A DNA stretch of 64,000 nt from a virus: the IMG/VR virus record IMGVR_UViG_3300038829_000269, positions 522-64,521 of that record; one strand, 5' to 3'. The notes under the pieces are model-generated. The model had not been told where the DNA came from. It saw only the letters and a program-made list of their open reading frames with translations, and ran no database searches. Shown here piece by piece: positions 2 through 16,857 of the stretch (positions are counted from its first letter, which is position 1; each line of letters opens with the position of its first letter). The position numbers were made by a program, and so were the translations under genes.

Positions 2-1396
2 ATCCAGACGCTTGGCGTCCTGTTCACCCACCGGATCGCGGCGGGCGGTCACCTGCCAACGATGATCCTGGCCCCGACCTCGGTGGTCGGAGACTGGCAC
101 GCCAAGTTCCGGCGCTTCGCCAAGATGGAGATCGCGGTCGCGGACGGGACGCCGGGCCGCCGCCTGAAGGTCTACGAGAGCAAGCCCGAGTTCCTGTGCC
201 TGAGCTACGACACGTTCATCAAGGACAACGTGAAGATCGTGCAGAACTTCCATCCCAAGGCGTTCATCCCGGACGAGGCTCAGCGGTTCACCAACCGCAA
301 GTCGAAGGCCGCCGAGAAGATCATCGAGTTCTGCGACATCGTGCAGCCGCGCTTCCGCATCCCGATCAGCGGAAGCCCCGTGTCAAACAGACCCGACGAT
401 CTCTGGCCCTTGTTGCGCGTGATCAACAAAGACCTGGCGGGCACGGCCAAGGCGTTCGAGGGGCGCTACCTCAAGCAAGAGACGAATTGGGCCATGATCA
501 AGATGATGGAGAAGAGGAACCCCGGCAAAAAGATTCCTTACAAGCCGATGATCCTGAAGTCTCTTGATCCGCGCAAGCCGGATGAGGCGCGCCTGCTCGG
601 CGAACTCAGGATGAAGATCGCGCCCTATGTTCTGCGACGCCTGAAGAAGGACGTGCTCAAGGACCTGCCGAAGAAGTTCCACGAGCGGCTGGAGATCGAG
701 TTGAGCGCCGAGGAGCGCCGCGCCTACGAGGAGCTTCAGGCTCAGTTCGCTGAGGCGATGGCCGGGGTGCTGGAGGACGACCAGGACACGGCGGCCTCCA
801 ACTTCCTCCAGTGGTTCACGCGCGCGCAGCAGATTTGCTCCAGCCTGGAGATCGTCGGGCTCGGCGATAAGTCGTCGAAGATGGATGAGTTGAAGCACTT
901 CGTTAAGGACTACGCCGACGACGAGAAGATCATCATCTTCAGCCGGTTCACTGAGATGACGAAGATCGTGTGCCGGGAGTTGAAGGCCTATCACCCTCTG
1001 CACTTGCACGGCGGCATCCCTCAGAATAAGCGCCAACCGCTGATCGACGCCTTTCAGGAAAAGGATGAGCATCGTCTTTTCGTCTCCACGCTCAAGGCGG
1101 GCGGCGTCGGCCTGACTCTGACGGCCGCGACGATCGTCGCACGCCTAGACCGCTGGGTGTCGCCCACGGCCAACGATCAGGCCGAGGACCGCGCTCACCG
1201 CATTGGGCAGCGCAATGACGTGACGGTCGTCGACTTCGTGGTCAAGGACTCGATCGAGGAGCGCATCCTGGAGATGTTGGACAAGAAGCTGAGGATGATC
1301 GCGAGCCTGATCGCGGCGGACGACGACGAAGAGGCGCAGGAGCGCAAGATCGTGCGCTCTCTCCTCCGCAAGCAGGAGATGATGAAACTGATATGA
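2..1396 (+). CDS. SNF2-family (SF2) helicase/ATPase, 5' end outside window
   Basis: Frame is open from base 2 (IQTL..., just after where Walker A would lie). Motifs LAPTSVVGDW (Ia), DEAQ (II), SGSPVSN.PDDLW (III), LRRLKKDVL..LPKK, KIIIFSRF, GGVGLTLTAA, QAEDRAHRIGQ (VI). Confidence 0.93.
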   Translation: MQTLGVLFTHRIAAGGHLPTMILAPTSVVGDWHAKFRRFAKMEIAVADGTPGRRLKVYESKPEFLCLSYDTFIKDNVKIVQNFHPKAFIPDEAQRFTNRKSKAAEKIIEFCDIVQPRFRIPISGSPVSNRPDDLWPLLRVINKDLAGTAKAFEGRYLKQETNWAMIKMMEKRNPGKKIPYKPMILKSLDPRKPDEARLLGELRMKIAPYVLRRLKKDVLKDLPKKFHERLEIELSAEERRAYEELQAQFAEAMAGVLEDDQDTAASNFLQWFTRAQQICSSLEIVGLGDKSSKMDELKHFVKDYADDEKIIIFSRFTEMTKIVCRELKAYHPLHLHGGIPQNKRQPLIDAFQEKDEHRLFVSTLKAGGVGLTLTAATIVARLDRWVSPTANDQAEDRAHRIGQRNDVTVVDFVVKDSIEERILEMLDKKLRMIASLIAADDDEEAQERKIVRSLLRKQEMMKLI

Positions 1397-6810: not shown

Positions 6811-6846
6811 TTGACAAATACCGTTAGTCTGTTATAATAACGGTAT
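6811..6846 (+). promoter_or_regulatory. sigma70-type promoter with overlapping palindromic operator, probably leaderless mRNA
   Basis: TTGACA 6811-6816, 16-nt spacer, TGn-TATAAT 6830-6838. Inverted repeat ATACCGTTA (6818-6826) / TAACGGTAT (6838-6846). ATG at 6845 is 7 nt after the -10 box, with no SD. Confidence 0.85.
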
Positions 6847-15277: not shown

Positions 15278-15577
15278 ATGCAGACCACGACCAAACCCAT
15301 CAGCCAGGCTGAGATGGCCCGGCACGCCGCGAAGCTCGATCTCGCCTATCGCGAAGAGTTCGACGCCAAGATCAAGGAGCGCAAGGAACTCGGCTTCACG
15401 ATCAACGACATGTCGATCCTCACCGGCTGGACGAAGACCTACTTCTTCCGGCTGATCAAGGACAAGCGCATCCCGAAGCCGGACCGGCACGGCAAGAACC
15501 ACACGCTGCGCTGGCCCGAGGATCGCGCGCGCGTCGTGATCGCGTTCTATCAGCAGCAGCAGGGGAAGTTCTCCTGA
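15278..15577 (+). CDS. AlpA/excisionase-like HTH DNA-binding protein (in-frame upstream ATG at 15167 also possible)
   Basis: GGAGG RBS before 15278; FTINDMSILTGWTKTYFFRLIKDKRIPKP...LRW matches the AlpA-type winged HTH. Confidence 0.72.
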   Translation: MQTTTKPISQAEMARHAAKLDLAYREEFDAKIKERKELGFTINDMSILTGWTKTYFFRLIKDKRIPKPDRHGKNHTLRWPEDRARVVIAFYQQQQGKFS

Positions 15578-15580
15578 TTC

Positions 15581-15589
15581 TGGTATAAT
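15581..15589 (+). promoter_or_regulatory. extended -10 promoter (TGgTATAAT)
   Basis: Perfect TATAAT at 15584-15589 with TG at 15581, in a high-GC genome; no clear -35. Confidence 0.5.
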
Positions 15590-15593
15590 CTGC

Positions 15594-15682
15594 TTCCTCA
15601 TCGGCCCGGGTTGCTCCCTGCGATCTCGTGACCAAAAGTGAGGAAAAAGGCCTCGATCGACGATGATCGAGGCCTTCGTTTT
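15594..15682 (+). ncRNA. candidate small RNA (about 90 nt)
   Basis: Lies between the extended -10 and a terminator; TTCCTCA/TGAGGAA closes a 5' stem; no ORF. Confidence 0.3.
15644..15682. terminator. probably bidirectional intrinsic terminator
   Basis: 12-bp perfect stem AAGGCCTCGATC (15647-15658) / GATCGAGGCCTT (15665-15676); A-run before, CGTTTT after. Confidence 0.7.
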
Positions 15683-15760
15683 GCCACCTAGCCCATCGTA
15701 AACCTGTCAAGTAAAAAGAAAGTAAAAAATTTTCTCGACGAGGAATTGGGTTGAGCATGT

Positions 15761-15840
15761 CGAAAACAGCCCGTTTTCGGTCATTCTGAAAATGGTCATC
15801 TGTTATACTTGTGGTAGATGTTCATACTACAGTATCAACA
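15761..15840 (+). promoter_or_regulatory. promoter/operator region of the histone gene
   Basis: AT-rich island; TGtTATACT at 15801-15809; inverted repeats CGAAAAC-N5-GTTTTCG (15761-15779) and ATACT-ac-AGTAT (15824-15835); direct repeat GGTCAT x2. Confidence 0.55.
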
Positions 15841-15850
15841 GGAGGACAGA

Positions 15851-16075
15851 ATGGCTCGACTACTCTACGTTCAGAAATCCAAGGTCCGGCGGTTCATCAA
15901 CGAGCGCGGGATGAAGGTGTCGAAGTCCTACATCGACGCGCTCGACCGCGAGGTGATGATCCTCATGGAGAAGCACCTGCGGATCGCGAAGGCCGACCGA
16001 CGCAAGACCGTGATGGTCGTGGACATCGACCTGCCCGCCAAGATCGCGAGCCTGTCTCGCGATCTCAAGAGGTAG
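15851..16075 (+). CDS. bacterial-type histone-fold protein (Bd0055/HBb-like), 74 aa
   Basis: AGGAGG RBS. MARLLYVQKSKVRRFINERGMKVSKSYIDALDREVMILMEKHLRIAKADRRKTVMVVDI: alpha1 (SKVRRFI), L1 (GMKVS), short alpha2, L2 RKTV with RD clamp (RKTVxxxD). Confidence 0.88.
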   Translation: MARLLYVQKSKVRRFINERGMKVSKSYIDALDREVMILMEKHLRIAKADRRKTVMVVDIDLPAKIASLSRDLKR

Positions 16076-16078
16076 CCC

Positions 16079-16750
16079 ATGGGTGCTGACAAGGTCTATG
16101 CCTGGGAGCATCGTCAGTTCAAGTGGCACTACGCGGTGAAGATCGCGTATGAGCACCGGCGCCGCGTGGCCGTCGACCTGGCCAAGCGCTTCGGGATCAA
16201 GGACCTGCGCGTCGACCTGGACACGCGCGGCGGCGGCCGGGCGTTCGTCATGCAGCGGCGGATCAGGCTCCCGTCCTGGAGGCATAGCTGCTCTCTCGGC
16301 CTGATCCTGCACGAGATCGCGCACGTCTACGACTGGATTCACCTGGAGGGGAACGGGCACCGCGCGACCTTCAAGAAGTGCATGATCAAGCTCGCGATTG
16401 AGACCAGGGCTATGCGCTACCTGCCGCCGATCTTCGCCCAGATCAGGGCGGAGGAGGCCGCGCGCTTCGCCCAGGTCAGGAAGGGCCACGTCCGGGCCCA
16501 GAAGGCCCAGGCCGCCGCGCAGAGGGCCGTGGACAGGCGCCTGGCGCTCAAGGAGCGGAAGAAGACACCGGAGTGGCGCCTGGAGCGCGCGCGGGCCAGG
16601 GTCAAGGCCCTGGGCACCAGGATCAAGCGGTTGCAGACCGCCCAGCGCAAGGCGGAGCGCCAGGCCCGGGGTCTGGAGCGCGTGGTGGCCCGTCGTGTAT
16701 CAGAATCGGCGGGAAGTGATACGCTCGCGGTCGAAGTGTCTCACGCCTGA
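16079..16750 (+). CDS. SprT-like zinc metalloprotease with long basic C-terminal helix
   Basis: GGRA....RIRL...LILHEIAH...GH...FK (HExxH plus distal His); Arg/Lys/Ala-rich helical tail. Confidence 0.75.
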   Translation: MGADKVYAWEHRQFKWHYAVKIAYEHRRRVAVDLAKRFGIKDLRVDLDTRGGGRAFVMQRRIRLPSWRHSCSLGLILHEIAHVYDWIHLEGNGHRATFKKCMIKLAIETRAMRYLPPIFAQIRAEEAARFAQVRKGHVRAQKAQAAAQRAVDRRLALKERKKTPEWRLERARARVKALGTRIKRLQTAQRKAERQARGLERVVARRVSESAGSDTLAVEVSHA

Positions 16751-16751
16751 T

Positions 16752-16820
16752 ACAAAAGAAAACCCGCCCAGTGTGCCCCCGGGTCGATCGACCGCGAGTC
16801 CGGGGCGCAGGGCGGGTGTG
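16752..16820 (-). terminator. long GC stem-loop terminator at the convergence of the two gene blocks
   Basis: ACCCGCCC (16762-16769) / GGGCGGGT (16810-16817) with inner stems, followed on the - strand by TTTTCTTTT. Confidence 0.75.
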
Positions 16821-16828
16821 TTGCCCAG

Positions 16829-16857
16829 AGGATAGCAGGTCGTCAGCAGGAGGTCAA
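16829..16857 (-). promoter_or_regulatory. putative sigma70 promoter pointing into the stem-loop
   Basis: - strand TTGACC-N17-TATCCT with extended TG. Confidence 0.45.

Follow-up and report, generated by a model that had tools for sequence, protein, structure and literature searches.

Can a bacteriophage bring into its host, from a single operon, both a histone and a protease that act on the same DNA? This question is raised by a 64,000-nucleotide stretch of viral DNA (IMG/VR record IMGVR_UViG_3300038829_000269, positions 522 to 64,521; hereafter the window, meaning the whole stretch analysed), in which a gene for a small histone is followed almost immediately by a gene whose product carries the HExxH motif of SprT-like metalloproteases. 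To our knowledge, no function is known for either the bacterial-type histones or the SprT-like proteases of phages. A preliminary description of the window had proposed that both genes could belong to a module that remodels nucleoid protein coats, for example by stripping DNA-bound proteins and replacing them with phage histone, or by removing the histone before packaging. Judged from the comparison of related loci, the pair is a conserved and translationally coupled operon, presumably an early one, of a single uncultured lineage of phages.

Conservation and expression of the gene pair

The histone and protease genes were adjacent in 11 distinct uncultured phage lineages, represented by the window and by loci L023, L001 (equivalent to L003, L004 and L036), L005, L006, L009, L011, L014, L016, L017 and L034. 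In most of them the stop codon of the histone gene overlaps the start codon of the protease gene (ATGA or GTGA), and in the remaining ones both genes are separated by a 3-nt gap. The most distant pair was that of L034, whose histone and protease showed 29 and 39% identity, respectively, with those of the window. In addition, a twelfth lineage (L012) presented a gene for an HNH_3 homing endonuclease between the two genes, the order of which was retained. The left flank of the pair varies: the window and L023 have plus-strand genes there and the other loci a minus-strand block, the pair being intact throughout. The right flank is conserved and holds genes of lysis and tail fibres. The neighbourhood comparison therefore bore out that histone and SprT-like genes co-occur in phage genomes (11 adjacent lineages plus L012), as the preliminary description had anticipated, and its view of the two closely spaced genes of the window as one unit agrees with their conserved adjacency and mostly overlapping stop and start codons. 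Its statement that such a pairing had not been described also held, as phage histones and phage SprT-like proteins have been reported separately and no paper linking them was found in literature searches. A scan of IMG/VR from the histone side, with a mixed profile of phage and cellular sequences, returned only a contig that was already known.

In two distant phages a gene for an HNH-type homing endonuclease directly precedes that of the SprT-like protein, at L012:5403-6011 (also in L013) and at L002:3517-3963, and the histone–protease junction may be a recurrent homing site. The small open reading frame (ORF) that precedes the HNH gene in L002, an AT-rich member of the sister clade of the proteases described below, might have a histone fold; hhalign gave it a probability of 0.7%, no hit in the PDB was obtained, and its CBFD_NFYB_HMF neighbours in the Atlas are a lead only.

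Regarding the expression of the pair, 11 diverged loci were compared, and in 10 of them, L006 being the exception, an extended −10 word (TCTGTTATACT; Table 1) lies about 35–45 nt before the histone ATG; several loci also have TTGACA at a 17-nt spacing from this word. Two matches to the word were found in the window, compared with 0.06 expected, and the count for the entire 139-kb record was also two. Because the word looks like a promoter of the host sigma-70 type, transcription by the host sigma-70 polymerase, and hence early expression, would be expected. The Shine-Dalgarno sequence of the second gene (AAGAGG) lies inside the 3′ end of the histone gene. These data support the claim that the pair has a promoter of its own. 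Nevertheless, the palindromic sites that had been attributed to this promoter could not be sustained, as they span at most 7 bp and an excess over chance was not demonstrated. No palindrome of 6, 8 or 10 bases was over-represented in the 139-kb record, and the palindrome GTTTAAAC is absent there.

The second copy of the promoter word in the window, CTGTTATA(A/C)T at 6828-6838, has a perfect TTGACA at −35 and stands ahead of a gene starting at 6845. This gene and the histone operon may constitute a tiny early regulon served by the host polymerase. Upstream of the histone gene in L001 (3660-3780), L005, L014 and L017, which are relatives with a minus-strand left block, the promoter-operator word is present in both orientations flanking an inverted TTGACA pair. 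This arrangement indicates putative divergent early promoters with one common palindromic site.

The histone and the SprT-like protease

When searched as a single sequence, the histone matched nothing in Pfam or PHROGs, and neither protein of the pair had a match in PADLOC. A profile built from 10 homologues matched HBb of Bdellovibrio (8fvx_A and 8cmp_A) with an E-value of 3e-8, residues 6–61 of the query being aligned with residues 5–61 of the chain and thus with the entire fold, and the same profile matched 9f2c at 1e-6. The identification of this protein as a histone is therefore maintained. Its closest cellular genes, as determined by tblastn, encode histones of Bdellovibrionales, Bacteriovoracia and Brocadiaceae and other Planctomycetota, with 37–45% identity. 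The loop-2 motif ADRRKTVM..D is invariant (R51, T53 and D58 strictly, K52 nearly so) and aligns with ADRRKTVM(D/A)RD of the cellular members; its RxT..D residues were lost solely in the divergent L034 copy. According to these matches, the 74-aa protein, with a pI of 10.6, is an α3-truncated histone of the HBb type, also named 'bacterial dimer' histone. However, the one-turn α3 end typical of that type is not what its sequence presents: the phage copies extend for 14 conserved residues (L61 to R74) past the loop-2 motif, at which the cellular copies stop, and residues 61–74 correspond to a predicted amphipathic helix with L61, I65 and L68 on its hydrophobic face.

The window histone resembles HBb of Bdellovibrio bacteriovorus (Bd0055; 8FVX, 8CMP; PMC11390915) in its fold (residues 6–61), loop-2 motif, size and basic charge, and differs from it in being encoded by a phage, in the conserved 14-residue amphipathic C-terminal helix and in sharing an operon with a zincin. 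A class of 'phage histones' has been defined by an α3 fold with a C-terminal tetramerisation helix (Schwab et al., 2024; PMC11390915) and is said to lack the R-x-T..D motif (PMC11390915), and 84 bacterial-like histones have been reported in Caudoviricetes (bioRxiv 10.1101/2024.12.06.627149). Like the members of that class, the window protein combines an α3 fold with a C-terminal helix and is found on metagenome contigs of tailed phages, and its G20, R33 and K52 are spaced as G26, R39 and K58 of the example protein of Schwab et al. In contrast, the R-x-T..D motif is invariant in the window family, both classes being compared by their description. The words 'protease' and 'peptidase' occur 0 times each in these two articles (PMC11390915 and 10.1101/2024.12.06.627149). 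Taken alone, the histone is, as far as its sequence indicates, a new member of a kind already reported.

In two metagenome-assembled genomes of Bacteriovoracia (L025:2698-3174 and L026:543-1019), a single ORF contains two tandem HBb-type folds, with two profile matches in one 159-residue frame. By these matches, it represents the bacterial dimer histone in doublet form.

SPRTN (also named Spartan), Wss1 and SprT are DNA-dependent metalloproteases (PF10263; PDB 6MDX, 5XBN). In 20 homologues of the window protease, residues H78, E79, H82, G93, H94 and F98 were invariant, and the pattern HExxH-x(10-14)-(G)H-x(2-3)-F was retained in the majority of the representative clusters inspected, which numbered 145. 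As the residues of the zinc site are invariant, an active metal site would be expected. The match of the window protein with the SprT-like family PF10263 of Pfam (E-value of 0.026, 14.8 bits) was below the cut-off of 25.6 bits; across the family, PF10263 was the commonest match, for 16 of the 20 members, with a best E-value of 3.9e-5. The NCBIfam model TIGR04338 matched 9 of the 20 (best E-value of 2e-4) and is about as near as the SprT models. The Pfam scans of the family listed no ImmA/IrrE match, and the protease profiles searched by sequence against the PDB gave coiled-coil noise only and no solved protease.

The full model of the protease (pLDDT of 90) shows a small α/β zincin core (residues 1–114) and two long antiparallel helices (115–161 and 164–212). 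The resulting tail (115–212), modelled at a pLDDT above 90, has 28 lysine and arginine residues in 98 positions and a net charge of +19, and the pI of the whole protein is 11.3; the long Arg/Lys helical tail previously noticed is thus present in the model as two predicted helices. The second of them (TRIKRL..TA..KKAERQ) is nearly invariant in the 20 homologues, and this conservation suggests that it has a specific partner, either a polyanion or a protein. An N-terminal Y-x-W-E...F motif is also invariant and is peculiar to this family.

Comparison of the catalytic-domain model with 48,161 PDB chains gave SPRTN and Wss1 as the top two matches, and IrrE-type structures were among the weaker ones. 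A Foldseek search with the protease model yielded abylysin, selecase, Wss1, SPRTN and IrrE, all of them weak, and the named viral fold matches were mostly phage SprT-like proteins. Unlike SPRTN, Wss1 and SprT, the window protein is below threshold in Pfam, its putative DNA-binding part is a helical hairpin, and neither a zinc-binding sub-domain in the model, which consists only of the core and two long helices, nor a Zn_ribbon_SprT match in Pfam was found. The invariant zinc-site residues, the Pfam trend within the family and the top fold matches all agree with the SprT-like identity first assigned to this gene. On the basis of sequence and model, we place the HExxH protein among the SprT-like zincins, broadly defined, closest to SPRTN, Wss1 and SprT, and do not regard it as an orthologue of SPRTN. 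An exhaustive profile search found 219 representative clusters of this protease, 69 of them at an E-value of 1e-10 or better; about 50 of the clusters carry the basic tail, and the remainder consist of the domain alone.

Table 1. Position of the features of the histone–protease locus in the window.
Feature	Position	Strand	Remarks
HTH (helix-turn-helix) gene	15278-15577	+	99 aa; GGAGG 8 nt before the ATG; context only
Upstream hairpin	15647-15676	+	Perfect 12-bp stem (inverted repeat 100% complementary), then the T-rich run TTCGTTTTG
Extended −10 word TCTGTTATACT (TG-n-TATACT)	15799-15809	+	Putative promoter of the histone operon
Histone ribosome-binding site AGGAGG	15840-15845	+	5 nt before the histone ATG; read from the sequence; kept in L023
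Histone gene	15851-16075	+	74 aa
HExxH (SprT-like protease) gene	16079-16750	+	223 aa; 3-nt gap (CCC) after the histone stop codon
HEIAH codons	16310-16324	+	Zinc-site motif
Codon of H94, putative third zinc ligand	16358-16360	+	Within the GNGH..FKK motif (region 16310-16360)
Downstream hairpin	16762-16817	.	Long, GC-rich; separates the operon from the convergent minus-strand block
Protease parts	Residues 1-114, 115-212, 213-223		Catalytic (H78, E79, H82, H94); basic antiparallel helical hairpin; disordered end

Flanking signals, neighbouring genes and source phage

The preliminary description had placed the pair between two strong hairpins acting as terminators, and this was upheld for the strength of both and in part for their role. 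The upstream hairpin has a folding energy of −23.5 kcal/mol (z −4.6), equally good folds being obtained in 0 of 200 shuffles, and is kept in L023 with a single change located in the loop. It is likely an intrinsic terminator ending the upstream plus-strand transcription. The downstream hairpin, folded as plus strand, reaches −40.1 kcal/mol (z −4.0) and shows three compensatory pair changes with respect to the close relative L023. Nevertheless, a terminator pattern scan placed its T-run on the minus strand, with an A-tract on the plus-strand side. Because of this, the hairpin would in the first place terminate the convergent minus-strand operon, and it would at most act in both directions.

The gene upstream of the pair had been taken for an AlpA-type regulator, an assignment that was not supported. 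In Pfam, HTH_19 (E-value of 0.019) was the sole match listed at E-values up to 1, with no match to AlpA (Phage_AlpA) or HTH_17, and the PDB gave no match. Only weak CI-like matches were found in PHROGs and one weak match (E-value of 0.032) in PADLOC. Among the related loci this gene was found in L023 alone, the minus-strand block occupying the left flank of the other relatives. By its matches and distribution, it is a weak generic HTH gene that does not belong to the conserved unit.

A TGGTATAAT box is located 3 nt after the stop codon of the HTH gene and is followed by an ORF-less stretch that closes with the 12-bp hairpin (window 15581-15682). This region differs from that of L023 by one indel and one loop change. 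The putative small RNA stretch is 98–99% identical to L023 over about 190 nt, a conservation that says little because the adjoining HTH gene is 96.7% identical anyway, and no relevant match for it was found in Rfam.

In IMG/VR the source record measures 139,276 bases, with a G+C content of 65.3%, and was cut out of a groundwater metagenome contig of 170,231 bases whose further flank is also phage-like. Genes for baseplate J, a gp5-like spike, SNF2 and DEAD_2 helicases and a beta-helix fibre were identified in the window, which by this gene content is part of a tailed phage. Searches of the GenBank phages with the region, with both proteins of the pair, with a cellular HBb-type histone and with the baseplate J protein all came back without a match. 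In the 139-kb record both the histone and the protease genes are present as a single copy. IMG/VR calls this record (G000 / L035) a provirus; the 10 kb before its start on the 170-kb contig hold small phage-like ORFs and no host genes, and its classification as a provirus seems to be an artefact of trimming.

A gene for a 638-aa SNF2-family helicase (window 57-1396 plus L035:6995-8911) is located about 14 kb upstream of the histone gene. In L002 an SNF2 gene lies about 0.7 kb upstream of the histone-like ORF mentioned above and about 1.5 kb from the SprT-like gene. A preprint ties SNF2 domains to viral histones, with significance in giant viruses only.

Possible roles of the pair

The explanation that we tentatively prefer, as something possible although short of probable, is that the pair is a conserved early bicistronic operon of uncultured tailed phages of about 160–170 kb and that both proteins act on the same DNA, the protease clearing it and the histone coating it. 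The comparison shows how the genes are arranged, that the pair and its promoter are conserved and to which family each protein belongs; DNA binding and protease activity, and above all the joint action of the two proteins, are what we infer here. The host sigma-70 RNA polymerase would start at the extended −10 word and produce a single mRNA for both genes, and translation of the second gene would be coupled to that of the first through the 3-nt gap in the window and the overlapping stop and start codons in most relatives. The HBb-type histone would dimerise and bind DNA without sequence preference, and its extra amphipathic C-terminal helix would probably add a higher-order contact. The basic antiparallel helical hairpin would tether the SprT/Spartan-type protease to nucleic acid, where it would cut proteins sitting on DNA. 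Early in infection, the protease would in this manner clear away the proteins already bound to the DNA, be they nucleoid or defence proteins of the host, and the histone would coat the DNA. The 'strip and replace' mechanism of the preliminary description is also one that we infer. A minimal phage 'chromatin exchange', in which the DNA-tethered protease strips host nucleoid proteins or DNA-bound defence enzymes and the co-translated histone, with an oligomerisation helix of its own, re-coats the DNA for control or protection of a genome early in infection, appears unlikely.

Several observations weigh against a joint action. In L007 and L020 the same slot holds a protease without a histone, and such proteases are also found in the more distant L019 and L032, which belong to the sister clade, with catalytic residues and tail intact throughout; since the protease persists without the histone, its function cannot depend on the phage histone. 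In L031 there is a histone without the protease, and its C-terminal helix is retained. All pair-bearing members belong to one protease clade in the FastTree phylogeny. The two histone-less members L007 and L020 are nested within this clade as secondary losses, and its sister clade is made up of AT-rich members that lack the histone. With a single pair clade, the association looks like one origin followed by vertical inheritance. Moreover, no histone–protease fusion was found among the 145 representative clusters, and the cellular HBb-type histone genes had no such neighbour within 3 kb. From the sequences compared, it looks as if the tailed protease were the older gene, to which the histone joined upstream once and mostly stayed. 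Complex prediction with two histone copies and the protease gave a score of 0.00 in both runs, which is neither for nor against binding.

The two genes could also be independent early genes under one promoter, an explanation that we find nearly as possible as the preferred one. The protease would then act as in the histone-less phages, either in an ArdC-like counter-defence on incoming DNA or in the removal of adducts, and the histone would act separately on the host nucleoid or the phage DNA, having simply been acquired from a bacterium and placed ahead of an older gene, at an early site with strong expression. This agrees with a tailed protease family that is older and broader than the pairing (219 clusters, about 50 of them tailed, with a histone-less sister clade), with the two nested histone losses in which the protease was kept and the one histone-only locus, and with the fact that SprT-like proteins are common in unrelated histone-less phages. 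However, the stop/start overlap is retained down to 29–39% identity, the pair remains together despite the rearrangement of the left flank, and in L012 its order is retained around the inserted HNH gene, all of which would be less expected for independent genes. Concerning the comparison with ArdC of plasmid R388 (PMC7213743), both are mobile-element proteins in which a nucleic-acid-binding part, predicted in the case of the window protease, is joined to a Spartan-like metalloprotease domain, and ArdC is made early on cell entry, as the window protein would be. Nevertheless, the window protein has the reverse order of parts, a histidine as third ligand and a coiled-coil appendage, and the two were found to share no more than the zincin fold.

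Two further explanations concern the protease itself. The operons ImmR-ImmA and DdrO-IrrE encode a small DNA-binding protein and then a zincin, and the window operon, with a small protein of DNA-binding type followed by a zincin, resembles them. By analogy, the substrate of the protease might be the phage histone, which would coat DNA early and be removed later (for example, before replication or packaging), possibly through a cut at its C-terminal helix. This timer-like role seems rather improbable to us. The gene order mirrors that of the generally known repressor–protease pairs, IrrE-type structures are among the weaker fold matches, and the conserved C-terminal extension of the histone is found only in phage copies, which are mostly linked to the protease. 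However, the partner in the window has a histone fold and not an HTH, the protease persists without a histone in at least four lineages, and the L031 histone keeps its C-terminal helix without a protease. In addition, a protein co-translated with its own destroyer would need a further trigger, and no ImmA/IrrE match was listed in the Pfam scans. Finally, the HExxH protein might be an inactive zincin-like fold serving as a structural or regulatory nucleic-acid-binding protein, in agreement with its extremely basic character throughout (pI 11.3) and with the lack of a sequence-level match to any solved protease. This is very improbable, as the histidines and the glutamate of HExxH and the third histidine do not vary among the 20 homologues and are kept in most of the 145 clusters inspected.

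Returning to the preferred explanation, in which both proteins would act on the same DNA, the coupled operon under a host-type early promoter turns these two protein families into a concrete hypothesis that can be tested in Escherichia coli: the histone would coat DNA and the DNA-tethered protease would remove its earlier occupants or, later, the histone. If this hypothesis were false, the locus would still yield a new, well-defined subfamily of basic-tailed zincins (219 clusters, with a Y-x-W-E motif at the N-terminus and a tail of the coiled-coil type) and an HBb variant that is peculiar to phages and ends in an additional helix. If it were true, this would be the first bacterial virus found to bring along a chromatin protein together with an enzyme that clears chromatin, and it would offer a parallel in the bacterial world to the action of SPRTN and Wss1 on histones.

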